DNA from: a virus
Virus record (IMG/VR): IMGVR_UViG_3300042878_000903
Coordinates: 1-64,000 of that record
Reading direction: 5' to 3' (one strand)
DNA length: 64,000 nt
Part shown: piece after piece, positions 3,805 to 41,016 of the stretch
Layout of the letters: every line of letters begins with the position of its first letter
Position numbering within the stretch: position 1 is the stretch's first letter
Program-made: the position numbers and the translations under genes
The notes under the pieces: model-generated
Database searches by the model: none
Told to the model about the DNA's origin: nothing
What the model saw: only the letters and a program-made list of their open reading frames with translations

Positions 3805-4359
3805 CTAATACACTCTTAAATTTGAAACACTTTTTAATGTTTCCCATTTATAAAATCTTACAACTGCATATCTAGTACCTGAAGTAACTTCATTGACTTT
3901 ATGAGAATATATATAGTTAGATGGGAATATTAAAGTATCCCCAGCCTTTGGCTTATATATTTTATTAAACCAGACATACTCTAAGTCTCCCCCAGAATAA
4001 TCGTTGTTTAAATACATTATGATGGAAACTGTTCTTGGATTTTCACAATCTTCATCTAGATGTGTTTTAAAATGTTGGCCTTCGCCATACCTAACAAGCT
4101 GCCACTGCTCAGGCATTAGTCCACGAATACCATATTTATTGCAATATTCATCTAAATTTTTATTAATAGAAGATTCTAATATTTTTTCAATTTGTATAAT
4201 GCTCTCATCTTTTGATCCTTCTTTGATAAAATAAAGACCTACATCTCTTGGGCCACCAAGCTCCATGTATTCAAGGTTTTTCATTAAACCCATAAGCGTA
4301 TCAATTTCTTCAACTGAATTTTTGTATATAGCAACACCTGGGAAAAGTTCTTCAGACAT
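3805..4359 (-). CDS. 2OG-Fe(II) oxygenase (prolyl-4-hydroxylase-like)
   Basis: HxD (HLD), YLNNDYSGG, HxV...GxRY. Confidence 0.85.
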   Translation of the reverse strand: MSEELFPGVAIYKNSVEEIDTLMGLMKNLEYMELGGPRDVGLYFIKEGSKDESIIQIEKILESSINKNLDEYCNKYGIRGLMPEQWQLVRYGEGQHFKTHLDEDCENPRTVSIIMYLNNDYSGGDLEYVWFNKIYKPKAGDTLIFPSNYIYSHKVNEVTSGTRYAVVRFYKWETLKSVSNLRVY

Positions 4360-5392: not shown

Positions 5393-6043
5393 CTATATGG
5401 AGCCTGGAATTTTATTCATGTATGTAATATCCGTAGATATTCTTTTGCCACCTATAACCTCTTTAACAGCATGAGTTACATTTGAATCAAATATCATTAC
5501 CTGACCAGCTGAAGGCTTTATTGTAATATCATTATCGGTGTTAGTTTTGTGTTCACTGTTACCTAAACTTTGCTGAAAATTTATCTCAGTTTTATTTTCT
5601 TCATCAATAAAAGTAATTTCTCCACCTTCAAAGTCTGAAGACAAATAAAGAACAATACTTACTGATGGCACCATAACTTTCCCATCTTCTGAATCCCAAG
5701 AATCAGTATGGTGTCCTATGCTTGCACCAATATCATAAGTTTTAATCCAATAGGCTGGTTTACTCATAACATAGTTATTCATATCTAGCCCAAAATGATT
5801 AGTGTAAAATTTCATTGAATTTACCATTACTGGATGAATTTTTTCAAATATCTTATTAGATATCTCTATGCCTTCACTAGATTCTACTTCTATAAATGAT
5901 ATTATAGTGTGTGAACCAAGCCTACTGGAGCCCGTTGGTAATTCTTTTGATTTACAAAGATCTAGTATATAATTGATGTCTTCTTGAGATAGACAATTGT
6001 CTAAATAAAGACCATAATCTTTTATTTCCCGAACTATATTCAC
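5393..6043 (-). CDS. 2OG-Fe(II) oxygenase
   Basis: HTD, YLSSDFEGG, HAV...GKR. Confidence 0.85.
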   Translation of the reverse strand: MNIVREIKDYGLYLDNCLSQEDINYILDLCKSKELPTGSSRLGSHTIISFIEVESSEGIEISNKIFEKIHPVMVNSMKFYTNHFGLDMNNYVMSKPAYWIKTYDIGASIGHHTDSWDSEDGKVMVPSVSIVLYLSSDFEGGEITFIDEENKTEINFQQSLGNSEHKTNTDNDITIKPSAGQVMIFDSNVTHAVKEVIGGKRISTDITYMNKIPGSI

Positions 6044-8902: not shown

Positions 8903-9456
8903 TTACTACTACCTTTTTCTTTAAAAACAAACTTTTGAATAACTATTCTTTCTCCACTAATATAATTTAAAACCTCGTGATTTGACTCAGACGGAAAAAT
9001 AATTAGGTCTCCGCTTTTTGGCTCTAAAAGAAAGTTAGAATCTGGAAATTCTAAATTTCCGCCTTCACATTCATGAGACAAATAAAATATAGCTGTTAAA
9101 AATGGTTGCTCAAATTCTGTACCAGTTAATGATACATCTGCTATATGATCATTGTGTAGTGGCATTCCTCTTTCTGGAACAGTCCAGCCAATTAGAATCC
9201 AATCTGAAAACCCATATTTTTCTTCAGGGTCTAATCCATACTCTTTAACATATTCTTCTAGGCACGGCGCAAAGTCTTCATCTAATTTATTGTTAGATGG
9301 CATAGTTTTGTCCATTACCATCCTATAACCAGTGTGATGCTCAATTAACAAATCTTTTCTTTTATTATATTCGCCAAGTATATCTTCTTTTAATTTAGGC
9401 AAATCTTTAGAAACATTTCCCCACACCATTATTCTATCAGAACGATTAGATATCAT
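8899..9456 (-). CDS. 2OG-Fe(II) oxygenase
   Basis: HND, EGGNL.F, HEV...GER. Confidence 0.8.
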   Translation of the reverse strand: MISNRSDRIMVWGNVSKDLPKLKEDILGEYNKRKDLLIEHHTGYRMVMDKTMPSNNKLDEDFAPCLEEYVKEYGLDPEEKYGFSDWILIGWTVPERGMPLHNDHIADVSLTGTEFEQPFLTAIFYLSHECEGGNLEFPDSNFLLEPKSGDLIIFPSESNHEVLNYISGERIVIQKFVFKEKGSSK

Positions 9457-10009: not shown

Positions 10010-10126
10010 TTATTTAATCTTTGATTTTATCTTACTGTTAGCCTTTTTAAATCCTAGGCCATATGACCCTAGCATTAATAGAGCAATTGCTGAGGAATGC
10101 AATAAATAAAATAAGGATGTTCTCAC
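10010..10126 (-). CDS. 38-aa membrane peptide (GTG start, not in ORF track)
   Basis: Overlaps katG stop; hydrophobic stretch then Lys-rich tail. Confidence 0.45.
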
Positions 10127-12186
10127 TTTTTCCCTTTCTTTATATCAAATCTATCAAGTTCCATTACTTTTGACCACGCATTAGCAAAGTCTAGGAAGAA
10201 CTTCTCTCTAGCATCATTTGAGGCATATACTTCTGCAATTGCACGTAGCTCTGAGTTAGACGCAATGATAAGATCAACACGAGGAACGTTAATTGCCTCA
10301 CTAGCATTAGTGTAAGAAAGCAACTCGGATAGATAGGTGTTGTCTAAGTTATTGTTGTTTAGCATTCTAATTCCAGATAGTAATAACACAAGTTCTACTG
10401 GATTTAAATCTAATAAGTTAGCCTTTTCTACCAGCAATACTTCTTCTGGAGCAGTAACGGCCCAATTAATGTAGTTGCGGAAGCCATCAAACTTTGGCTC
10501 AAGAACTAAAAACGAATCAATGTCTGTTTGATTTTGTGTTGCATCTGTTCTACCTTGTGTAAATGGAACAGATACTTTAATCCCTGACTGTTCTGCTGAC
10601 TTTTCAATAGCAGCGCATCCACCAAGCACAATAAGGTCTGCAATTGACATTTCTGTTTTAATAGATTCTAAAACACTAAGAACCTTACTAATAGTGGCAG
10701 TATCATTTACATCCCAGGATATCTGTGGATGTAGTCTGATTCTTGCCCCATTTGCTCCGCCCCTCTTATCTGTTTTCCTAAAAGTAGAAGCAGAAGCCCA
10801 TGCGGTAATGACTAAATCTGAAATAGATAATTCTGAATCTAATATTTGCTTCTTTATCTTTTTAATATTTTTATCAGAAATCTTTTTGTTTTTTGTTAGC
10901 GGCACTGGATCTTGCCATATTAATATTTCTGAAGGCACTTCTTTACCAAGATACCTTGAAACTGGACCCATATCTCTATGAGTTAGCTTAAACCATGCAC
11001 GAGCAAATACGTCTGAGAAATATTCGAAGTCTTTTAAAAATTTCATTGAAATTTTGTTATACTCTGGATCAAATTTTAATGCTAGGTCTGCTGTAGTCAT
11101 CATTGGTGCATGAAATTTGCCATCTACATGTGCGTCTGGCACTAAATTAACAGCAGATTTATCTGTAGGAATCCATTGTGTAGCTCCAGCAGGACTTTTT
11201 GTTTGCTTCCAGTCATATGTAAACAATAACTCAAGATACGAGTTATCCCATTTAGTTGGTGTTGGGCTCCATGCGCCCTCTATACCACTTGTAATTGTAT
11301 CTTCTGCATTACCTTTGCCAAAAGAGTTCTTCCAACCAAGACCAAGCTCTTCAATTGGAGCTTCTTCTGGATTTGGGCCAACGTGTGAGGGATCTCCAGC
11401 ACCATGGGCTTTACCAAATGCGTGTCCTCCTGCAATTAATGCAACAGTCTCTTCGTCATTCATTGCCATACGAGCAAAAGTTTCACGGATATCTTTTGCA
11501 GAAAGAATTGGATCTGGATTACCATTTGGGCCTTCAGGATTTACATAAATTAATCCCATCTGAACTGCAGCTAATGGGTTTTCTAATTCACGATCACTGC
11601 TATATCTATTATCTGCTAGCCATTCTTTTTCGTTACCCCAATATGTATCATCTGATTCCCAAACATCTTCACGTCCGCCACCAAAACCGAATGTCTTAAA
11701 GCCCATGTTTTCAAGAGAAACGTTGCCTGCAAGAATCATTAGGTCTGCCCATGAAATCTTTTTGCCATACTTTTGTTTAATTGGCCATAATAAACGACGT
11801 GCTTTATCTAGATTACCATTATCTGGCCATGAGTTTTGTGGTGCAAATCTATGTAAACCTTCTCCAGAGCCGCCACGTCCATCTGCTGTTCTATATGTGC
11901 CTGCTGAGTGCCAAGCCATGCGAATAAAAAATGGTCCATAGTTACCATAATCTGCTGGCCACCATTCCTGCGATGTAGTTAAAAGATTATTAATGTCATT
12001 CTTAACAGCATCTAAATCTAGGCTTTCAAACTCTTTTGCATAATCAAAATCTTTTGTCATTGGGTCAGATTTTTCTGAATGTTTTCTTAATCCAGATAAA
12101 TCTAATCTATTAGGGAACCATTCTTTGTGCGTTTTTACTTCTGTACTTGTTGAATGCCCAGTTATTGGACACTTTGCTTCTGTCAT
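10123..12186 (-). CDS. katG: catalase-peroxidase
   Basis: RMAWHSAG distal motif, [14 protein letters not shown] (Met-Tyr-Trp adduct residues), GGHAFGK proximal His. Confidence 0.97.
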
Positions 12187-12330: not shown

Positions 12331-12549
12331 TCAAGGGGTATACCTGTTTTTTAGTCTTACCCATTTGCCATATGTATTTGGCTCTTTGCTGCCTATGTAC
12401 TCTTGTCCAGTTTCTAAGTCAATTAATAGCCATTTCCCAGGAGCTTTAGTATGAATAGTTAAATCTGTTGCTTCATCATATTCGGGGACTTCAACGCCCT
12501 GATACATTCTAGGCAAAAATGTGTATACGTTATTTAATAATTTTCTCAT
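12331..12549 (-). CDS. hypothetical protein
   Basis: ORF track. Confidence 0.65.
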   Translation of the reverse strand: MRKLLNNVYTFLPRMYQGVEVPEYDEATDLTIHTKAPGKWLLIDLETGQEYIGSKEPNTYGKWVRLKNRYTP

Positions 12550-12580: not shown

Positions 12581-13630
12581 TTATGATTCCAATGCATATT
12601 TAATATCATTCCATAAATCTTCTGGGTCTTCGCAGCCAACTGAAAATCTAATTAAACTTTCTGAAATTAATTTACTTTCAAGAGGCCACCTTCTTCTTCT
12701 TTCCCACAAGGACTCTACGCTTCCAAGACTTGTTGCATTAGATATAATTCTAGAAGATGAGCATATTCTGTCTGCGCCTTCTGAATCAGTATTTACCTCA
12801 AATGATATCATGGCGCCAAATCCAGGATAATAAATTTTAGAAACCATTGGATGATCTGAAATTCTTTTTATTAATTTCTTTGCATTATCTTGGGCTTTTT
12901 CAAACCTTACTGGGAATGTTCTTATTCCTCTTAAAGCTAAATAGGCATCAAATGATTGAATTATAGTTCCACTTATTTTTCTTGAAAATTCTATTTTGTC
13001 AAACAAATCAGTGTTATTGATTGATATTGATCCACATAAAACGTCGCTGTGTCCAGCCAAATATTTAGTCACAGAATTCATGGAAATATCTGCACCCATT
13101 TTAAGGGGGTTTTGAAGTAGTGGTGTAGCAAATGTATTATCTACGCCCACTATAGTGTCCTGAGCCTTGCAGGCCCTTATTAGAGTACTTATGTCAGCCA
13201 CGTCTAGTCTGGGATTTGTAGGGCTTTCTATCCAAAGCATGTACGCTCCATCTAATTCTGATAAAACTTCAGCCGTATTCGATATATCTACAAACTTTGC
13301 AATTAATTTGCCTTGATCTTGCATTTGATTTAAGGTTGCATTTACTCCAGCGTATCCTTGGTTAGATGCAATTATTTTTGATCCCAGCGGAATATTATCA
13401 AAGACTGCTTTTATGGCAGACATTCCAGAATTAAATACTAAAGTTTTGCCGCCTTCTAATTTTCCTATTACTTCTTCTAATGAAGATGCTGTATCATTTC
13501 CATACCTTGCATACCCTACATCTCCGCCAGCATGATATGTAGAATTTAATGATATTGGAGTATTAATCGGGCCATCGTTGTCTGGCTTTGGTCTTCCGCT
13601 TAAAACTGAAATTGTGTATGGGCTTGTCAT
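12581..13630 (-). CDS. metB: PLP-dependent transsulfuration enzyme (cystathionine gamma-synthase/lyase family)
   Basis: YARYGN, SGMSAI, ESPTNP, DNTFATP, SVTKYLAGH, SLGSVESL. Confidence 0.9.
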   Translation of the reverse strand: MTSPYTISVLSGRPKPDNDGPINTPISLNSTYHAGGDVGYARYGNDTASSLEEVIGKLEGGKTLVFNSGMSAIKAVFDNIPLGSKIIASNQGYAGVNATLNQMQDQGKLIAKFVDISNTAEVLSELDGAYMLWIESPTNPRLDVADISTLIRACKAQDTIVGVDNTFATPLLQNPLKMGADISMNSVTKYLAGHSDVLCGSISINNTDLFDKIEFSRKISGTIIQSFDAYLALRGIRTFPVRFEKAQDNAKKLIKRISDHPMVSKIYYPGFGAMISFEVNTDSEGADRICSSSRIISNATSLGSVESLWERRRRWPLESKLISESLIRFSVGCEDPEDLWNDIKYALES

Positions 13631-13645
13631 ATTAAATCCTAGTAG

Positions 13646-13735
13646 TTAAATAAAAGGTAGATCTAAAATTTTATCTACCGCATCATCAATTGTAGGGGCA
13701 TGTTCTTTGGAGCATGCCCCACAACTTTTACACAT
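13646..13735 (-). CDS. 29-aa peptide MCKSCGAC... (not in ORF track)
   Basis: TAATG-coupled to upstream ORF. Confidence 0.6.
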   Translation of the reverse strand: MCKSCGACSKEHAPTIDDAVDKILDLPFI

Positions 13736-13935
13736 TATATCTTTTTTCTACCAGTCCTTTTAGGAGGCCTTGGCGTTGTATTTAGCTCACGACGTATACC
13801 ATGTCTATTTATGTCTGTTTTAAGACCTTGACGTGGATTCTTGCGTGTTACTGAATTACTAGTAACGGCACCTGCTGCTGCACCATTTGGTGGTGGAGTT
13901 GTTCCTGTGCCATCTTCTTTTTGAAAATTACTCAT
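13735..13935 (-). CDS. basic low-complexity peptide
   Basis: ORF track; overlaps neighbours on both sides. Confidence 0.65.
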   Translation of the reverse strand: MSNFQKEDGTGTTPPPNGAAAGAVTSNSVTRKNPRQGLKTDINRHGIRRELNTTPRPPKRTGRKKI

Positions 13936-14077
13936 TGATGAATTGTCTTGTTTGCTCTGGGGTTGATGACATGCTTAAAGTTAAGCCTGAATCACCATCT
14001 CTTGAAACATCTACAACTGTAACTGGAGTTACACCTTTAGTGCTTCCTACTGACTCGCATCCGCATTCGTAACACAT
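13928..14077 (-). CDS. 49-aa peptide MCYECGC... (not in ORF track)
   Basis: TAATG-coupled. Confidence 0.65.
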   Translation of the reverse strand: MCYECGCESVGSTKGVTPVTVVDVSRDGDSGLTLSMSSTPEQTRQFINE

Positions 14078-14256
14078 TATTTGCAATTCTCACAATCTTT
14101 AACATCACAATCGGCTTCGCCTCTTGTGTCTCTTGTGCACTTAGCAGCAGATACGACTGGCTTTGGTGCAATAGCTGCTTCTACAGGTTTAACTGCTTGT
14201 GCAACCGCTGCTTCAACTGTTGGAGCAGTAACTTCTTCTTGATCAAATAGACCCAT
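14077..14256 (-). CDS. 59-aa Ala-rich peptide with C-terminal 4-Cys cluster (not in ORF track)
   Basis: MGLFDQEEV...KCTRDTRGEADCDVKDCENCK. Confidence 0.65.
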   Translation of the reverse strand: MGLFDQEEVTAPTVEAAVAQAVKPVEAAIAPKPVVSAAKCTRDTRGEADCDVKDCENCK

Positions 14257-14258
14257 TT

Positions 14259-14408
14259 TTACTTTGGGCCCTGTGCTGATGCTTGGTTAGAAACATCTGA
14301 AGCTGGGAATGCAGCTGCTGGTGCCTCTGTGTAATTTTCTGTTGCCCATGGTGATGATCCTACTGGCTTTGTTTCGTTAAATCCTTTTAAATCTTTTCCG
14401 TCTGACAT
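14259..14408 (-). CDS. 49-aa peptide MSDGKDLKGFNETKP... (not in ORF track)
   Basis: TAGGAG RBS; TGGTATAAT promoter at 14465-14473. Confidence 0.7.
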   Translation of the reverse strand: MSDGKDLKGFNETKPVGSSPWATENYTEAPAAAFPASDVSNQASAQGPK

Positions 14409-14454
14409 GTTGTACTCCTATAGGTTATTTATTTAAGTAGTTCTAGAAATCTAC

Positions 14455-14553
14455 TCATTGGTCTATTATACCATCTGGTTGATTAGAATCGGAATCTTCA
14501 TCCCTTTTATTACCTAGGCCTATATGATCTGCACATCCACATAACCAACACAT
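14455..14553 (-). CDS. 32-aa peptide MCWLCGC... (not in ORF track)
   Basis: ATG overlaps the radical SAM stop codon (TAATG). Confidence 0.6.
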   Translation of the reverse strand: MCWLCGCADHIGLGNKRDEDSDSNQPDGIIDQ

Positions 14554-15554
14554 TAGTCGCCCCAAATGGCCGCAGAGCAGCTTCTACACATATTAGAGTA
14601 GCTATTTTCAACCATGTCAGACCTATTTTTGCTATGCCATATTTCTTTTATTGAAGTATTAAATGCATTTCCATATACCGTTTCAAAATCATAATCAGCG
14701 CAGCATATAAATAGATCTCCATTGGGGTTTATATGTATCCACTCATTAGTTCTACTTCTTACCTCTATGCCACCAGAGCAGCCTATAACACGACTACCCT
14801 TTGGCATTAAATATTTTTCTATAGCTGGACCTTGAGTCATTATTTTATATGTTTCTAAATGCGCTGCCCTATCATATAAATGATTAGCTGTACTTATGCT
14901 CAGGCTAGGGAACATTTCTTTAAATCGGTCATGCTCTTTTTTTAAATCTCCTGTTTGAACATCTAAATCTAATTTTGGTGCATTTTCAAGAAGATCTAGC
15001 CAGCCACCATTTTTAGTTAAAGATAAATCGTTAATGCCATTAATCATCAAATGAATAAAGATTGGCTTATCTAACTTATTGTTTTCTTCTATAAAATACT
15101 TTACATTTTCTATAACTTTTGGAAATAGTTTTACATTCATTTTAACGTATTTAGACCAGGTATCGGCTTCAGATGATGGAATGTTTAATAATATTCCATC
15201 AATAGAATCCCTGTGCTTTATTAAAATCTCTGTTTTAGATTTAGTTAAATTAACTCCATTAGTGAGTATATTTGTTCTAAAATTATATTTTGAATATAGA
15301 TCCATCATGGCATCAAATTCTTTATATAAAAGAACTTCGTTGTAATTAGCTGAATATACCATTTTTAATTCTGGATCTACAAAATCACCTTTGCCATCAG
15401 TTAATTGAATAAATATATTTTCTATTTCTGACAGAGGCATATCTCTTATTGCAGATTTTGGATTACCTGCATATGCAACTGGACAAAACCAGCATGCTGA
15501 ATTACACAGCCCGTTAACATCGAGCTGCACTGCCTTTATCATGTATTTATTCAT
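14553..15554 (-). CDS. radical SAM protein with SPASM/twitch domain
   Basis: CNSACWFC; TNG; C...INPNGDLFICC...GN....IKEIW...CRSC. Confidence 0.9.
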   Translation of the reverse strand: MNKYMIKAVQLDVNGLCNSACWFCPVAYAGNPKSAIRDMPLSEIENIFIQLTDGKGDFVDPELKMVYSANYNEVLLYKEFDAMMDLYSKYNFRTNILTNGVNLTKSKTEILIKHRDSIDGILLNIPSSEADTWSKYVKMNVKLFPKVIENVKYFIEENNKLDKPIFIHLMINGINDLSLTKNGGWLDLLENAPKLDLDVQTGDLKKEHDRFKEMFPSLSISTANHLYDRAAHLETYKIMTQGPAIEKYLMPKGSRVIGCSGGIEVRSRTNEWIHINPNGDLFICCADYDFETVYGNAFNTSIKEIWHSKNRSDMVENSYSNMCRSCSAAIWGD

Positions 15555-15676
15555 TACACCTTATACAATTCTTGATAACAATCTGCACACATATCTATTA
15601 TGCCAGACTCAGGTAAACTTCCTATTCTGGATGCCTTACCCTTACAATCTTTTATTTCACATAGCCCATTAAGCAT
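15554..15676 (-). CDS. 40-aa Cx4C...CxxC peptide (not in ORF track)
   Basis: MLNGLCEIKDC...MCADCY; TAATG-coupled to radical SAM gene. Confidence 0.6.
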   Translation of the reverse strand: MLNGLCEIKDCKGKASRIGSLPESGIIDMCADCYQELYKV

Positions 15677-15679
15677 ATA

Positions 15680-15898
15680 TTATTTTAATTTACTCCCAAA
15701 CTTGGCCCATGCTCTTTCATGAATGAAGTATCCCACTATTTCACATGCAGTGTACACAATTGCAAATGCTCCAGCATACTCCCAGTGGGCTTCTCCAGTT
15801 ATAATTTTTTCAAAAGAATACACCATCGTGCTAACAAATCCAATATGGACGGCTGGCCATGTAATTGATTTGTATAAACTTCTTTTATTTGATTCCAT
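15680..15898 (-). CDS. DUF2061-like small membrane protein
   Basis: ES.KRSL.K.ITW ... YFIHERAW. Confidence 0.75.
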   Translation of the reverse strand: MESNKRSLYKSITWPAVHIGFVSTMVYSFEKIITGEAHWEYAGAFAIVYTACEIVGYFIHERAWAKFGSKLK

Positions 15899-16682
15899 TT
15901 TGTTCTCCTATCATTTCTTTTATTAAATAATGTATTGATGAGACATTACTATCCTCTGGATGAGGACTAACTAATAAATCAGTTGCTCCTAATTTCTTTA
16001 AATCAATCAACTGTTTTTTAACACTATCTTTATTCCCGTATATTGTCCATCTATCAGAACCTAGACTTCTGGACATCATATCCTTTATTTCTGATTCTGA
16101 TTCATTTATAATGATACTAAATGAAAGCATTTGTTTTTTATTTTTAATAAAATTTGGATCCTCATAAGATTGCTTATGCATGTTTAGCATTGCAAGGTGT
16201 GTAGCATTATACTTTTCGGCCATTAGCCTTGTTTCGTTGGAATGCCCGCCCATAACTATTTCTGATACTGTATTGCCAGCTAGAGTATTAAATTTTAAAA
16301 TCCATTCATCTGTATATTTTAATCTTTTTTCTGGAGTATTTAGATCTTTACCAAACCAGATTATGTCTTCTACCGAAGTCTCTTCTTCGTGCAAATCTCC
16401 AGATACAATGTTAAGCATAAGTCTGTCTGGGGATATATTATAAAAAGCTTTGCATATCATTGCACAATATTCTGGGCTAATGGCGTATGTTCTAATTGCA
16501 GGCATGTACTTAAATTTATGGCCTTTATCTAAGACTCTAGCGGCTTTAATCCAATTATCATCAATTTTTGAATGATACACAAGAAGAATGGACTCGTACC
16601 CAAACTCATCAACTATATTGGAAATTGTATTGAGATGGTCAATGCTAGTATCTCCGCCTCTTTCCATCCAATGAAATCTCAT
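15885..16682 (-). CDS. luciferase-like (LLM) flavin monooxygenase, leaderless
   Basis: GYESILL, AIR...ISP, RLMLNIVSG as in the SsuD/LLM family. Confidence 0.75.
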   Translation of the reverse strand: MRFHWMERGGDTSIDHLNTISNIVDEFGYESILLVYHSKIDDNWIKAARVLDKGHKFKYMPAIRTYAISPEYCAMICKAFYNISPDRLMLNIVSGDLHEEETSVEDIIWFGKDLNTPEKRLKYTDEWILKFNTLAGNTVSEIVMGGHSNETRLMAEKYNATHLAMLNMHKQSYEDPNFIKNKKQMLSFSIIINESESEIKDMMSRSLGSDRWTIYGNKDSVKKQLIDLKKLGATDLLVSPHPEDSNVSSIHYLIKEMIGEQNGIK

Positions 16683-16748: not shown

Positions 16749-17771
16749 TTACTTAATCCAATTTACCTTTAGCTTAGGAAACTTTGCGTTCCACTTTTTA
16801 GCCAAAGCATTGAACTTTGTCTTTAGATCTGCAATAGTCTTCTTTAGGGCTTCGTTCTCTGCCTTTAAAGTTGCTGTTGCTGAATCTGATGAAGTCTTTG
16901 CATCTGCAAGTGCCTTATCTGATGCAATCTTATCTGCTGCACGAGCCGCTCTTTCTGCTGCCAACGCTGCGTTAACTACCGCAAGCTCTGATACAACATC
17001 ACGTACTACAATTGTAGCGCTTACAGAACCGATTGGTGCTGCTAAACCTGTTACGGCTGTTGCTACTGTTGCATATGCAACTACTGTTACTGAACCAGTA
17101 GCAGGCATTGTTACTGTCTGCTCTTTTGTTCCAAGTGTCGCTGTTGTTGAGTCAGTTGTTAGCGCTGTTGATAGTGCTGTTCCAGAGCTTGAAACTAAAG
17201 TATTAATTGTGGCTCCACTCTTTAGATTTCCGAATACATCGTATCCAGATACCTTAAGAACTTGTGATGTACCTGCTGCTGCTGATGCTGGAGCAGACAA
17301 AGTAATTGAGTTCAAAGCACCTGCGGTACCTTGTACATAATAAACTGTTGTTGTTCCTGCACGAGTAATAGATACTGAACCTACTGCTGTACTTTTAGTA
17401 TATACATAAAAGTCTGCTGCTGTTCCAGTTCCTGTCGCAATTGACAGTGTTGATGTTCCAGAAGATGCTGTTACTGCTGTCGCAGTAGTTGCAAGTGCTG
17501 GCACAAGAGTTGCATTTACTGCAACTGCTGTTACTACAGTTCCAGTGTCTACACCAGTAACTGCAATTTTCAACGCATCTGCTGCGTCGATGCTGTTATC
17601 TGCTGGCACTGGTAGTGATACAGGTGTTGTTACAACTGTTCCACCCGTTGCTGCAGATCCCGCCACTGTTAGTGTGACAGTTCCAGCGTTAGCGTTAGCT
17701 GCTGGCGTTACAAGCATTGTGCTAGTCAGGGCTGCAGCGATGATTAGCGATATTTTCTTAAATGAGTTCAT
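16749..17771 (-). CDS. secreted Ala/Thr-rich Ig-like surface protein with C-terminal coiled coil
   Basis: Signal peptide ending ANA; beta-rich A/T/V body; D.FGN motif; AAGGAG RBS. Confidence 0.7.
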   Translation of the reverse strand: MNSFKKISLIIAAALTSTMLVTPAANANAGTVTLTVAGSAATGGTVVTTPVSLPVPADNSIDAADALKIAVTGVDTGTVVTAVAVNATLVPALATTATAVTASSGTSTLSIATGTGTAADFYVYTKSTAVGSVSITRAGTTTVYYVQGTAGALNSITLSAPASAAAGTSQVLKVSGYDVFGNLKSGATINTLVSSSGTALSTALTTDSTTATLGTKEQTVTMPATGSVTVVAYATVATAVTGLAAPIGSVSATIVVRDVVSELAVVNAALAAERAARAADKIASDKALADAKTSSDSATATLKAENEALKKTIADLKTKFNALAKKWNAKFPKLKVNWIK

Positions 17772-17869: not shown

Positions 17870-18070
17870 TTAGTGTAATTCATGTAGTTTTACGTGGAAT
17901 GAGCATGGATCTCCACCCTCTTCCCAATCAATCATTTCGGCATCTGATAATGGAGGGCCTTCGTGTGTATCGCAAAATACGTCCGATACCCATCCTCGAT
18001 CATAACCATTCTTCAGCCATATTTGAAACTCTAAATGGCTAGAATCTTCCGAATCAAACTCTAAATCCAT
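17870..18070 (-). CDS. hypothetical protein
   Basis: ORF track; CDTHEG...DPC. Confidence 0.65.
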   Translation of the reverse strand: MDLEFDSEDSSHLEFQIWLKNGYDRGWVSDVFCDTHEGPPLSDAEMIDWEEGGDPCSFHVKLHELH

Positions 18071-18363
18071 TCTGATAACTCCTCAAGTAACACGTGCTTT
18101 GGCTTTGCTCCTGTTATTGTCTTGACTGGTTTACCATAACTAAATAGTATCATGGTTGGGATAGTCTTTATGTCAAATTCATCTGATTTCAATGGATTCT
18201 CATCAACATTTAACTTTCCAACCCAGAGCCCGCACTCATTTGATATCTCATCTAGTATTGGAGATACTTTTTTGCAAGGACCACACCATTCAGCCCAAAA
18301 GTCGATAAGGATTAAATTGTGGGCTTTAAGAACCTTATCAAAACTTTCGTCTGTTACTATCAT
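18061..18363 (-). CDS. trxA: thioredoxin
   Basis: DFWAEWCGPC; IPT. Confidence 0.95.
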   Translation of the reverse strand: MIVTDESFDKVLKAHNLILIDFWAEWCGPCKKVSPILDEISNECGLWVGKLNVDENPLKSDEFDIKTIPTMILFSYGKPVKTITGAKPKHVLLEELSEWI

Positions 18364-18617
18364 TTGTCTTTAAGTTCCTCTGCTGCTGCGTTAAATCTAT
18401 TCATGAAGTCTTGTATTACGAACAGGGTTGTTTCGTGTGCATTTTTTGACATTGCACTAAAGGCTTGTTCGTTCTTTTCATCATCAGGCATTGCTGAGAC
18501 CCATTTTTTATATAGGCCCTCAGCAACCTCCCCGACAATTTCATCCATTACTGTTAATTCAGCCATTAAGCTTTGCCAGCCAAAGTGCTTTGGTTGCAGC
18601 AAGTTTATCCTGTGCAA
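18360..18617 (-). CDS. hypothetical protein (likely start MAELTVM)
   Basis: ORF track. Confidence 0.6.
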   Translation of the reverse strand: MHRINLLQPKHFGWQSLMAELTVMDEIVGEVAEGLYKKWVSAMPDDEKNEQAFSAMSKNAHETTLFVIQDFMNRFNAAAEELKDK

Positions 18618-19734
18618 TTTTTAGTTCATTCTGATATTGTGTTTCTGCTGCAGCAATTGCTGCATTGACCTCAGATTGTAATTTTGCTTTTGCTGCTGCT
18701 TTTGCTGCTGCATCGGCTGCTGCTTTTGCTGCTGCATCGGCTGCTGCTTTTGCTGCTGCATCGGCTGCTGCTTTTGCTGCTGCATCGGCTGCTGAAGTAT
18801 TAATTGGTGTTGCAAGTATTGTGGATACAGAAGAGGTAATCCTTTTCTTAAAAGATCCTTGTCTTCCAGAAGTATTAGCAGCATTTGCCTTCATTATTTC
18901 AATTAGCTCACTGCCAGATTTACCAGTACTTACAGATAAAGATATATAAGTTGCTGCTGCAACCTGTGTAGCAGAAGAAGTTCCAGCGATATTCTTAGTA
19001 ATGTTTCCTGGCCCAACTGCAGGCATATTGCCTAGAGCAAAGAAATCTAATAGCGCAGAATCGTTATTACTATAAGAAGTAATCTCACCAATTTGATCTA
19101 CTGCACCTACAGATACTACATCTGGGATACATGATGGCCAATCAATTCTTGAGTAACTACGTGCATTACCTACTGCAGAAAATACTGGAATAGACATTGC
19201 ATTTAAAGATTGAACTGCTGTTATTGTTCTTGGGAATGTTGGGCAGTATTGTGTTCCAGCCTGACCAAGCATACCGCTACTTCCTTGTGAAATAGAAACT
19301 GCTTTTACATTATATCTAGCAGCATTTTCCTGTAACCAAAATAGCGCTGCTGAAATTGTTGATTCACCAGTTGGCTTTCTCAGACCTTCTGGAGTATTTG
19401 CAATAATTTTAATAAAAAGAACTTTTAGATTGGGATTATATTGAACTGCAGTGCTAGCCATAAGTGTTCCATGGTCAAACCCATTTTTAGTAATTAAGTT
19501 TGATGGCATAGAAGCAGCTCCGCTGCCTTCTTGAAAATTAGTTCCGTTTGGACATAAAGCGTATTCTAGGATACAAACTTCTCCTACGATCTTACCTTGA
19601 AGACCTGGAATTGATGTATCGATTGCTGTGTCTAGGATTGCTAGAACTGGTGCGTTTGCACCAGATGCCTGTGAAATTGCTACAGGAGATAGAAGTGATA
19701 AAGTAAGTACCGCCGTTATTAGTTTATTTTTCAT
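18559..19734 (-). CDS. secreted subtilisin-like S8 serine protease with Ala-rich repeat tail, leaderless
   Basis: Signal peptide; ILDT (Asp), HGT (His), GN oxyanion, GTS (Ser). Confidence 0.88.
   Translation of the reverse strand: MKNKLITAVLTLSLLSPVAISQASGANAPVLAILDTAIDTSIPGLQGKIVGEVCILEYALCPNGTNFQEGSGAASMPSNLITKNGFDHGTLMASTAVQYNPNLKVLFIKIIANTPEGLRKPTGESTISAALFWLQENAARYNVKAVSISQGSSGMLGQAGTQYCPTFPRTITAVQSLNAMSIPVFSAVGNARSYSRIDWPSCIPDVVSVGAVDQIGEITSYSNNDSALLDFFALGNMPAVGPGNITKNIAGTSSATQVAAATYISLSVSTGKSGSELIEIMKANAANTSGRQGSFKKRITSSVSTILATPINTSAADAAAKAAADAAAKAAADAAAKAAADAAAKAAAKAKLQSEVNAAIAAAETQYQNELKIAQDKLAATKALWLAKLNG
18697..18792. repeat. 4 perfect copies of a 24-bp unit encoding AADAAAKA
   Basis: TGCTTTTGCTGCTGCATCGGCTGC x4. 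Confidence 0.95.
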
Positions 19735-21972: not shown

Positions 21973-22273
21973 GTAGTCCCTTTATTTTTTTGTTTATTTC
22001 TTTTGTCTTATGTGCATTTTTTGATTTATCTGGTGTGCCAGAACTTAGATAAACTCCGCCCCAAACACCGTAATTATCTGACTCTACTCCATATTTATAG
22101 CACATGGCAATTACAGGACAAGACATGCATGCCTGATCAATACTTTTTGCTATGTTAATATCCGTTTCGTATGAATCAAAAAATAGGTTGGTGTCCATGC
22201 CAAGACATAGTGCTAGGTCTTGCCATTGAAGTAGGTCTTTATCTATTCCTAAATTATTTAAAATTTTTGACAT
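21965..22273 (-). CDS. whiB: WhiB-family Fe-S transcription factor (likely start MSKILN)
   Basis: WQ..A.C...D..LFF...C..CPV...C...GVWGG. Confidence 0.9.
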   Translation of the reverse strand: MSKILNNLGIDKDLLQWQDLALCLGMDTNLFFDSYETDINIAKSIDQACMSCPVIAMCYKYGVESDNYGVWGGVYLSSGTPDKSKNAHKTKEINKKIKGLHG

Positions 22274-40071: not shown

Positions 40072-41016
40072 CTAGCCTTTAACTTCTATAAGGTTAGATG
40101 GGATAGACAGCTTTATGGTTTGTAAATCTTTTTCTACATAAGATTCTTCTGTATTAACATTATTTAAATTGTCTTGTCCAAGTGTTATGTCGTATTGTTT
40201 TTTCCACTCGATTTCGTCTTTAACATCAGAATCAATAAACGCTCTTAAAAAATACCTATCTGATTTACTAAATGGTTTTACTCCGTGATAAAATGGTTCT
40301 GTTGACGGCATTATAACGGCATCTCCAGGCATAGGCTTATACATGTATGTGTTATTTGATATAGAATCGTATACACAAATTTCCCCTCCGTCATAATTAT
40401 TATTTAAATAAAAATTAACAGTAGCAACGTGCCTCTTTGTTTTTGTTTCCCCAGGTACTGGCAATTCGTCTACATGGTATTCCATGATTAATCCAGAAGG
40501 GTTTACCTTTCCTTGAAAACCTACGTCATATCTAAAAAAATCAATCCAGTATTTTTTGTTTGTATCTTTTAACAATTCCCAATCTTTTATAAATAAGGGC
40601 CATATTCCATTTTCTTTTCCAAACTCATTAAGATAGTCTTTTCTAATAAAATTCATACATTCATTTATTTCTAGTATGTATTCTTTTTCTAGATTGAGAA
40701 ATGTATTGGTTCCAGGATCTATAGTATCTAAAAGACTAAAGTCTGCGTCTCTTCTAAATCCTTGACCATACCAGCCTCTCCATTCATTAAAGAAAGAAAT
40801 TTCTCTACTGTCCTGCAACAAATCAATTATTTCTTTGCTGTTTTTAAATATGTTTTTATATATTACAATTTGTGGAGCCACTACAATTTTTTTTATAGAG
40901 CTGAAGTCCGTATTCAATCTACCCCACCCTAACTTCGTTTTCATGTCCATCAGGACATTCCCATGCAAGGACCATAGAATCTGGATCCCAAAAAGATTCT
41001 TCTGCATTCTTATCAC
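40072..41016 (-). CDS. 2OG-Fe(II) oxygenase (true start probably downstream)
   Basis: YHVD, YLNNNYDGGE, YHGV...RYF. Confidence 0.8.
   Translation of the reverse strand: MIRMQKNLFGIQILWSLHGNVLMDMKTKLGWGRLNTDFSSIKKIVVAPQIVIYKNIFKNSKEIIDLLQDSREISFFNEWRGWYGQGFRRDADFSLLDTIDPGTNTFLNLEKEYILEINECMNFIRKDYLNEFGKENGIWPLFIKDWELLKDTNKKYWIDFFRYDVGFQGKVNPSGLIMEYHVDELPVPGETKTKRHVATVNFYLNNNYDGGEICVYDSISNNTYMYKPMPGDAVIMPSTEPFYHGVKPFSKSDRYFLRAFIDSDVKDEIEWKKQYDITLGQDNLNNVNTEESYVEKDLQTIKLSIPSNLIEVKG

Follow-up and report, generated by a model that had tools for sequence, protein, structure and literature searches.

The stretch of DNA considered here, called the window below, is the first 64 kb of the IMG/VR virus record IMGVR_UViG_3300042878_000903, a 109,968-bp genome that CheckV rates as complete. 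Within it we followed up a cluster of genes for a radical S-adenosylmethionine (SAM) enzyme (rSAM), a pyridoxal phosphate (PLP) enzyme and a set of very small proteins, three of which begin with the cysteine motif MCxxCG(x)C. We refer to this N-terminal head as the hook. The record has a GC content of about 36% and encodes a WhiB protein at 22052-22225, and near-identical DNA is found in many lake-water metagenomes; we read the source virus as a freshwater actinophage. A search of INPHARED, which covers the GenBank phages, gave no DNA or protein matches to the region or to the rSAM.

Every gene of the region is on the minus strand. Read 5' to 3' on that strand, the order is a luciferase-like monooxygenase (LLM)-like gene, DUF2061, p40, rSAM, p32, p49, p59, p49b, p66, p29, the PLP enzyme gene, p72 and KatG (Table 1). 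The original prediction for this DNA, made from the letters alone, had placed seven packed open reading frames (ORFs) of 29-66 aa around the rSAM gene, three of them with an MCxxCG(x)C start, and proposed that they serve the rSAM as precursor peptides or else chelate metal. The seven ORFs are indeed there, with coordinates and sequences as claimed, and the three hook ORFs are p32, p49b and p29. The DUF2061 gene upstream and the Cys/Met-metabolism PLP enzyme downstream (full length, matching PF01053 with 277 bits over residues 6-348) were also correctly recognized. The LLM gene is in the position given for it, but the call itself is weak, at 24.7 bits to Pfam Bac_luciferase against a cut-off of 27.9; there is also a partial NCBIfam SsuD match of 51 bits.

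Table 1. Genes of the region in minus-strand order, with positions in the window.
Gene or product	Position	Strand	Remarks
LLM-like protein, 265 aa, SsuD-like N-terminal half	15885..16682	-	Backbone gene
DUF2061 small membrane protein, 72 aa	15680..15898	-	PF09834, 32.9 bits; backbone gene
p40, 40 aa, Cx4C...CxxC	15554..15676	-	Backbone gene, not tied to rSAM
rSAM, 333 aa, BtrN-like Twitch/partial-SPASM C-terminal domain	14553..15554	-	PF04055 and PF13186; accessory cassette gene
p32, hook peptide MCWLCGC, MCWLCGCADHIGLGN plus acidic tail	14455..14553	-	Probable dedicated rSAM partner
p49, 49 aa	14259..14408	-	Own AGGAG site; backbone gene
p59, Ala-rich N-terminus, CTRDTRG..C..CxxC C-terminus	14077..14256	-	Backbone gene
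p49b, hook micro-protein MCYECGC, MCYECGCESVGS...	13928..14077	-	Widespread backbone family
p66, basic, ...NRHGIRRE...GRKKI	13735..13935	-	Constant p49b neighbour
p29, hook micro-protein MCKSCGAC, MCKSCGACSKEH..IDD..D..LD	13646..13735	-	Cys2, Cys5, Cys8; widespread backbone family
PLP enzyme of Cys/Met metabolism, 349 aa, cystathionine gamma-lyase/synthase-like	12581..13630	-	PF01053; third triad member
p72, small protein	12331..12549	-	phrog_4098, function not assigned; backbone gene

The micro-ORFs are genuine genes. In each hook ORF the start codon overlaps the stop codon of the upstream neighbour as TAATG (rSAM for p32, p59 for p49b, p66 for p29), while p49 and the PLP gene have AGGA(G) sites of their own. 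The 109,968-bp genome has three ORFs with an MCxxCG(x)C start, all of them in this region, and block shuffles averaged 0.005 such ORFs and never exceeded 1. We fetched related viral loci with the rSAM as query, seventeen and then eighty, and the micro-ORFs were recovered in them at 38-100% identity. A Met always directly precedes the hook motif, and for some relatives the ATG of MCW is the very point at which the frame becomes open. Purifying selection on the small ORFs was borne out in all eight small families, with ratios of nonsynonymous to synonymous change (dN/dS) of 0.14-0.52. These are pooled Nei-Gojobori values in which synonymous change is near saturation: p40 0.29, p32 0.19, p49 0.52, p59 0.37, p49b 0.29, p66 0.14 and p29 0.14, with 0.18 for the DUF2061 gene.

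None of the seven micro-proteins had a match in Pfam or PHROGs, and the ESM Atlas gave no usable match for p32. In a large protein collection p49b forms 343 clusters at 90% identity, all hypothetical and without a Pfam domain, many of them on contigs of 100-124 kb. In one lake metatranscriptome library, two contigs of 151 nt were identical to the PLP gene, and another of 654 nt, from a relative, spanned p49b to p49; DNA carry-over is possible in both cases.

Most of this block is found without the rSAM. The p49b family has at least 180 IMG/VR viral loci and p29 at least 245, and we counted co-occurrence in the 80 best loci of each. The rSAM, p32 or the PLP gene was present in 4 of the 80 for p49b and in 6 of the 80 for p29. 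By comparison, the 80 p49b loci had p66 in 79 cases, DUF2061 in 64 (4 of these with rSAM), p49 in 52 and p40 in 41 (again 4 with rSAM), and the LLM-like gene was in 22 of the p49b loci and 21 of the p29 loci, mostly without rSAM. On the long contigs L236, L176, L145 and L220 the block runs contiguously as DUF2061-p40-p49-(p59)-p49b-p66-p29-p72(-KatG) with no rSAM, p32 or PLP gene. At the two places where these genes are missing the neighbours close up: p49 directly follows p40 in L176 and L236, and p72 comes directly after p29 where the PLP gene is absent (L236, L145). The p59 gene also occurs in loci without rSAM, L145 being an example. DUF2061, p40, p49, p59, p49b, p66, p29 and p72 are the backbone of a large group of freshwater actinophages of about 110 kb.

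One explanation of the region was that p32, p59, p49b and p29 are all precursors in a single phage cluster for a ribosomally synthesized and post-translationally modified peptide (RiPP) of the sacti- or ranthipeptide type. The genes are physically clustered and tightly packed on a shared strand, and Cys-rich peptides lie beside an rSAM with a Pfam SPASM match, as one would expect of such a cluster. However, p49b, p29, p59, p66, p49 and p40 are kept in many phages that lack the rSAM, so the array is not a set of precursors for it. The original prediction had itself given conservation of the peptides in rSAM-less relatives as an outcome that would count against it. The reverse separation is also seen, since lineages L012-L016 and L034-L036 have rSAM and p32 (with or without PLP) in another context and none of the block peptides. 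The rSAM also has neither a seven-Cys SPASM domain nor a RiPP recognition element (RRE), and we consider this explanation very improbable. Of the co-occurrence that the original prediction expected between peptides and rSAM, the part that survives is p32, and p49b, p29, p59 and p40 fall away. The stop codon of p40 does overlap the rSAM start, as had been seen, but p40 belongs to the rSAM-independent block. In the same way p59 has the Ala-rich N-terminus and Cys-rich end described for it, but it sits in that block too.

We also observed that p59 has two forms with the same N-terminus, one with the Cys-rich end CTRDTRG..C..CxxC and one that is Cys-free and Trp-rich and ends in ...FWANAWANRGV. 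The Cys-free form is present at L008:6303-6458, L155:5870-6001 and L229:5488-5625.

The rSAM had been described as a radical SAM/SPASM enzyme. It does have Pfam Radical_SAM and SPASM matches, but its C-terminal part has five conserved Cys and not the seven of a full SPASM domain. The invariant cysteines (17, 21, 24, 259, 284, 285, 323 and 326, in homologues down to 46% identity) form a CxxxCxxC SAM cluster motif and a C...C...CxxC auxiliary motif, which is the Twitch pattern. Among solved structures BtrN comes closest in sequence (8.7e-13), with both the N- and the C-terminal part in the alignment, and the C-terminal ICC...CxxC aligns to the Cys of the BtrN Twitch domain, which holds one auxiliary cluster. 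No NCBIfam model came near its cut-off for the rSAM, and Pfam and NCBIfam scans found no RRE or PqqD match in any ORF of the region. With the CxxxCxxC motif beginning as early as residue 17, an N-terminal RRE would not fit. An AlphaFold model of the rSAM (mean predicted confidence, pLDDT, 86.7) matched DesII, SuiB, BtrN, BlsE, EpeE and anSME in Foldseek at TM scores of about 0.5; judging from the model, the fold alone would not separate sugar from peptide substrates. A predicted complex of rSAM and p32 with SAM and two 4Fe-4S clusters scored 0.03, which gave no verdict, and was not used.

The relatives of the rSAM show where it may have come from. Phage homologues at 42-50% identity are flanked upstream by a DUF6171 gene and on the other side by a PF11397 GlcNAc-type glycosyltransferase; a 2-oxoglutarate (2OG)-Fe(II) oxygenase and an epimerase-like gene are often nearby. 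In Syntrophorhabdaceae metagenome-assembled genomes (MAGs) a glycosyltransferase sequence is directly upstream of the rSAM homologue, and in one of these MAGs the two are fused into a 622-aa PF11397 glycosyltransferase-rSAM protein (L310:4056-5921). We built a quick maximum-likelihood tree with IQ-TREE and rooted it at the midpoint. The p32-linked rSAMs are one clade (SH-aLRT 100, stem length 0.44), nested among the glycosyltransferase-linked phage rSAMs, with the bacterial fusions outside. Because they are a single nested clade, we take the link to p32 to have arisen once, together with the loss of the glycosyltransferase neighbour, and this suggests a change in the substrate or partner of the rSAM. 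A PF11397 profile search of the phage genome gave no match, although the control was likewise silent.

Two side observations belong to these relatives. The genes next to the L310 fusion (DUF3540, PAAR-like toxin and pentapeptide-repeat genes) resemble a type VI secretion setting. The phage genome has a DUF6171-like gene of its own, for a 79-aa Cys-rich protein with an internal QCKQCGC, at about 89410-89649 on the minus strand (L099:5411-5650), among tail-fibre genes and about 75 kb from the rSAM. DUF6171, which has the motif QCKKCGCFM, is found at no fewer than 574 IMG/VR viral loci (at least that number), often beside 2OG oxygenases and PF11397 glycosyltransferases. We considered whether, through DUF6171, this rSAM family always needs a CxxCGC partner, and we rejected the idea: an rSAM was near 6 of 75 DUF6171 loci.

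The situation is very different for p32. We found it on 43 viral contigs, and in all 43 the rSAM is at most 1.1 kb upstream. The converse nearly holds as well, as L057 is the only locus without p32 among rSAMs of at least 58% identity, and in L056 the rSAM and p32 are both frameshifted. The family consensus is MCW[LMI]CGCA[DS]H[VI]G[LP]GN, with the first 15 residues near-invariant. A DNA alignment with the rSAM-less L145 and L229 shows that p32 is unrelated to them at first and becomes homologous from about codon 20, TCTAATCAACCAGATGGTATAATAGAC, through the intergenic region and into p49. Since the homology starts there, the backbone contributes the acidic tail of p32, and what the cassette brings is the functional part, the first 15-20 residues. 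In three lineages p32 is only 23-25 residues long and has no acidic tail. L145 (5071-5614) and L229 (4753-5278) have, at the site of rSAM and p32, a different cassette of a 122-aa and a 53-aa ORF, and the 53-aa ORF ends in a p32-like ...SSNQPDAIID (SNQPDxIID) tail. The cassette site is a recombination hot spot in which the joint is inside coding sequence.

The PLP enzyme is the third member of this accessory set. Its S-x-T-K lysine (K189) is invariant in the alignment; among NCBIfam models PRK07582 scored best, with 278 bits and short of its cut-off, and no equivalog cut-off was reached. In a profile scan, the 25 viral contigs with a PLP gene of this clade (at least 61% identity) all had rSAM and p32 within 2.6 kb upstream, while the next viral PLP relatives (at most 36% identity) had neither. 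This linkage led us to reject the PLP enzyme as an independent metabolic gene. Three gene orders were seen: rSAM-p32-block-PLP as here, rSAM-PLP-p32 in the L012 type and rSAM-p32-PLP in the L042 type. As the link is strict in one direction and the PLP gene is missing near about half of the rSAM and p32 loci, we group the three as an accessory triad to which PLP often, but not necessarily, belongs. In this genome the mobile triad of rSAM, p32 and PLP is inserted in two pieces around the backbone block.

It could be that the triad consists of independent auxiliary metabolic genes that travel together, with the rSAM acting on a sugar or small molecule, the PLP enzyme boosting host Cys/Met metabolism, and p32 functionally unrelated to both. 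The BtrN-like sequence of the rSAM and its glycosyltransferase-linked or -fused relatives would fit, as would the absence of PLP from about half of the rSAM and p32 loci, and the alternative cassettes of L145 and L229 show that the region is a hot spot where cassettes replace one another. What we find hard to reconcile with it is that the one-directional links (43/43 and 25/25) stay strict across rearranged gene orders, that a single gain of p32 falls on the long stem branch on which the glycosyltransferase neighbour disappeared, and that the whole clade has retained the stop/start overlap. We believe it to be improbable.

The hook itself reaches well beyond p32. We surveyed 302 loci for motif families and found at least six small-ORF families that share the hook head but whose tails are unrelated and for the most part acidic (net charge -3 to -10). 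They are p32, p49b, p29, a 35-aa MCKDCGCG family and two families of 55-69 aa. Three different hook families fill one and the same slot between p59 and p66, so the tail can be exchanged while the head stays the same. Among 235 distinct ORFs in these loci that start with MCxxC, 194 have G6 plus C7 or C8. The head is also found on larger proteins, as two 238-aa 2OG-Fe(II) oxygenases start with MCTTCGC or MCNSCGC (L017:1848-2561 and L040:4515-5231). Phages of the glycosyltransferase-linked rSAM clade have Lys-rich hook micro-proteins with a basic tail, MCAKCGCNCK... and MCATCGCGKKKK... (L071:4965-5063, L071:5960-6136 and L072:5926-6024).

The closest known counterpart of the hook is the N-terminus of HypB, the nickel chaperone of [NiFe]-hydrogenase. 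The CxxCGC of E. coli HypB holds Ni(II) at picomolar affinity, with the N-terminal amine, Cys2, Cys5 and Cys7 as ligands, and a peptide maquette of the HypB motif binds both Ni and Zn (PMC12284835). The register M-C-x-x-C-G-C with Cys2, Cys5 and Cys7 is exact in p32 and p49b. The only profile that matched p32 was NCBIfam HypB_prefix_1, found in all 20 of the members scanned with a best E-value of 0.0019 and always below cut-off (15.9 bits for the p32 of the window, where the cut-off is 30), and p49b weakly matched HypB_prefix_2 in 6 of 13 members. As in HypB, the motif is followed by what looks like a disordered acidic or His-containing stretch. Unlike HypB, the hooks are phage-encoded and either stand alone as 23-69 aa peptides or, in the two phages just mentioned, sit on a 2OG-Fe(II) oxygenase. 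Pfam and NCBIfam scans found no HypB/CobW-type GTPase domain, and the hook peptides end after 23-69 residues. In the literature we searched, stand-alone CxxCGC micro-proteins are absent, and "CxxCGC" there refers to HypB or is mentioned in passing.

Taking these results together, we think that the region is probably a combination of backbone metal-binding micro-proteins with an accessory rSAM/p32/PLP triad in which p32 is a dedicated partner of the rSAM. The simplest reading of the hook motif is metal binding, which we infer from the likeness to HypB. Since the motif is also retained by families that never occur with the rSAM, its function should not depend on that enzyme. On this reading p49b and p29 would be acidic, stand-alone micro-proteins that bind metal at a HypB-type N-terminal Cys3 site and act independently of the rSAM. 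As a small dedicated partner, p32 would most probably be an accessory that handles metal or iron-sulfur clusters; it would serve an Fe-S enzyme in trans, as the hook sits in cis on the 2OG oxygenases, and the PLP enzyme would supply reduced sulfur as sulfide or cysteine. We assign the accessory role to p32 tentatively, because of the 1:1 translational coupling, the use of the motif independently of rSAM, the lack of an RRE and the sugar-enzyme ancestry of the rSAM.

Several points weigh against this reading. The invariant residues of p32 other than Cys (W3, A8, D9, H10, G12, G14 and N15) fit a substrate recognized by an enzyme, or a peptide-derived cofactor, equally well. SPASM/Twitch rSAMs include many peptide modifiers, and SuiB, EpeE and anSME are among the fold matches of our model. 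About half of the rSAM and p32 loci have no PLP gene inside the fetched flanks. The likeness to HypB is a matter of a seven-residue motif, with every profile match below its curated cut-off. In p29 the cysteines are at 2, 5 and 8 rather than 2, 5 and 7, with one extra residue before the third Cys. We also saw no hydrogenase or other Ni enzyme in the phage genome, where a search for Sod_Ni (PF09055) was empty and its control was silent too.

An alternative is that p32 is a leaderless precursor with an N-terminal core, of the bottromycin or PqqA/MftA type, which the Twitch rSAM and perhaps the PLP enzyme modify. A thioether, a Cys oxidation or a Trp cross-link would then lead to a small metallophore or cofactor, and the other hooks would be unrelated. 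The strict linkage of p32 to rSAM and of PLP to both is what one would expect in that case, and the 15-residue head has stayed near-invariant (W3, D9, H10, G12, N15) while the enzymes have diverged to 58-61% identity. The peptide modifiers SuiB, EpeE/YydG, anSME and CteB are neighbours of the rSAM by fold or sequence, and it has weak NCBIfam matches to KxxxW and DynA maturases. Against this, the region has no RRE domain or PqqD-like ORF and no protease or exporter; the five C-terminal Cys would hold one auxiliary cluster in the BtrN pattern; the top sequence match is BtrN, a sugar dehydrogenase; and the ancestors of the rSAM are linked or fused to glycosyltransferases and not linked to peptides. 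A precursor coupled 1:1 downstream of its enzyme would also be unusual, and the motif is kept in families that never occur with an rSAM. We therefore regard a precursor role for p32 as somewhat unlikely. A more specific proposal, that the Twitch rSAM and a transsulfuration-type PLP enzyme make a cross-linked thiol metallophore, or a cofactor derived from the peptide, out of the p32 head CWxCGCADHxGxGN, seems to us unlikely.

Comparison with known systems helps to place the favoured combination of metal-binding backbone proteins and a dedicated triad. The rSAM resembles BtrN (2-deoxy-scyllo-inosamine dehydrogenase) in its Cys pattern, small size and lack of an RRE. However, the two share about 15% identity, the phage enzyme is about 80 residues longer, and the genes linked to it encode a Cys3 peptide and a PLP enzyme, where BtrN is among aminoglycoside genes. 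With the rSAM/SPASM maturases of RiPPs it shares a branch of the fold (SuiB, CteB, SkfB, PqqE, anSME and EpeE matches), and the triad shares with RiPP systems a short conserved peptide gene strictly linked to the enzyme. It differs from the sactipeptide, ranthipeptide, streptide, PqqE and MftC maturases in having no RRE or PqqD and five rather than seven C-terminal Cys, and p32 differs from RiPP precursors in being leaderless and conserved in its first 15 residues, while the other array peptides are enzyme-independent. Judged by sequence, the region would not count as a RiPP cluster on the SPASM Cys number, the RRE or the co-occurrence of any peptide except p32. The PF11397-linked rSAMs of phages and bacteria are homologous at 28-50% identity, but the clade of the window has no glycosyltransferase neighbour, has p32 and PLP instead, and sits on a long stem branch.

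We made some further observations on the surrounding genome. The redox genes KatG, a thioredoxin-like gene with a WCGPC motif, and WhiB lie in this part of it (10123-12186, 18061-18363 and 22052-22225 in the window), and in two relatives (L006:6728-7776 and L155:6704-7821) an apparent AhpC/AhpD-like pair, judged by N-terminal sequence, replaces KatG. Two ORFs on the minus strand flank the micro-gene block and are conserved in relatives. One, at 16749-17771, encodes 340 aa rich in Ala and Thr with a signal-like N-terminus and no Pfam match; the other, at 18559-19734, encodes 391 aa with an N-terminal hydrophobic stretch and AADAAAKAA repeats. The 110-kb genome has nine matches to the 2OG-Fe(II) oxygenase family PF13640 above the Pfam cut-off and one weaker match, with those in the window at 3850-4101, 5435-5746, 8926-9162 and 40234-40482 on the minus strand and the others at 79.4-83.4 kb. 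This is an unusually large set of paralogues for one phage genome. A 730-aa protein of the tail-fibre region (L099:5919-8111, about 89.9-92.1 kb) has PPFFPPFF repeats and three copies of a Cys-containing module, and it is a possible candidate substrate of prolyl-hydroxylase-like oxygenases.

One lesson is a caution, as Cys-rich micro-ORFs beside an rSAM need not be its precursors. The hook families comprise hundreds of variants in abundant lake phages, and they have largely been missed by gene callers and PHROGs. If the hooks bind metal, then phages of streamlined freshwater Actinobacteria would manage thiophilic metals with peptides of 23-69 residues while they infect their hosts; the genome studied here also encodes KatG, an rSAM that is an Fe-S enzyme and some ten 2OG-Fe(II) oxygenases. 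With its strict linkage, the rSAM-p32-PLP triad offers a testable system of just three genes for measuring what such a hook does. Should the triad turn out to make a metallophore or cofactor, this pathway would be new, minimal and peptide-based, and it would be run in freshwater Actinobacteria limited for sulfur and metals.

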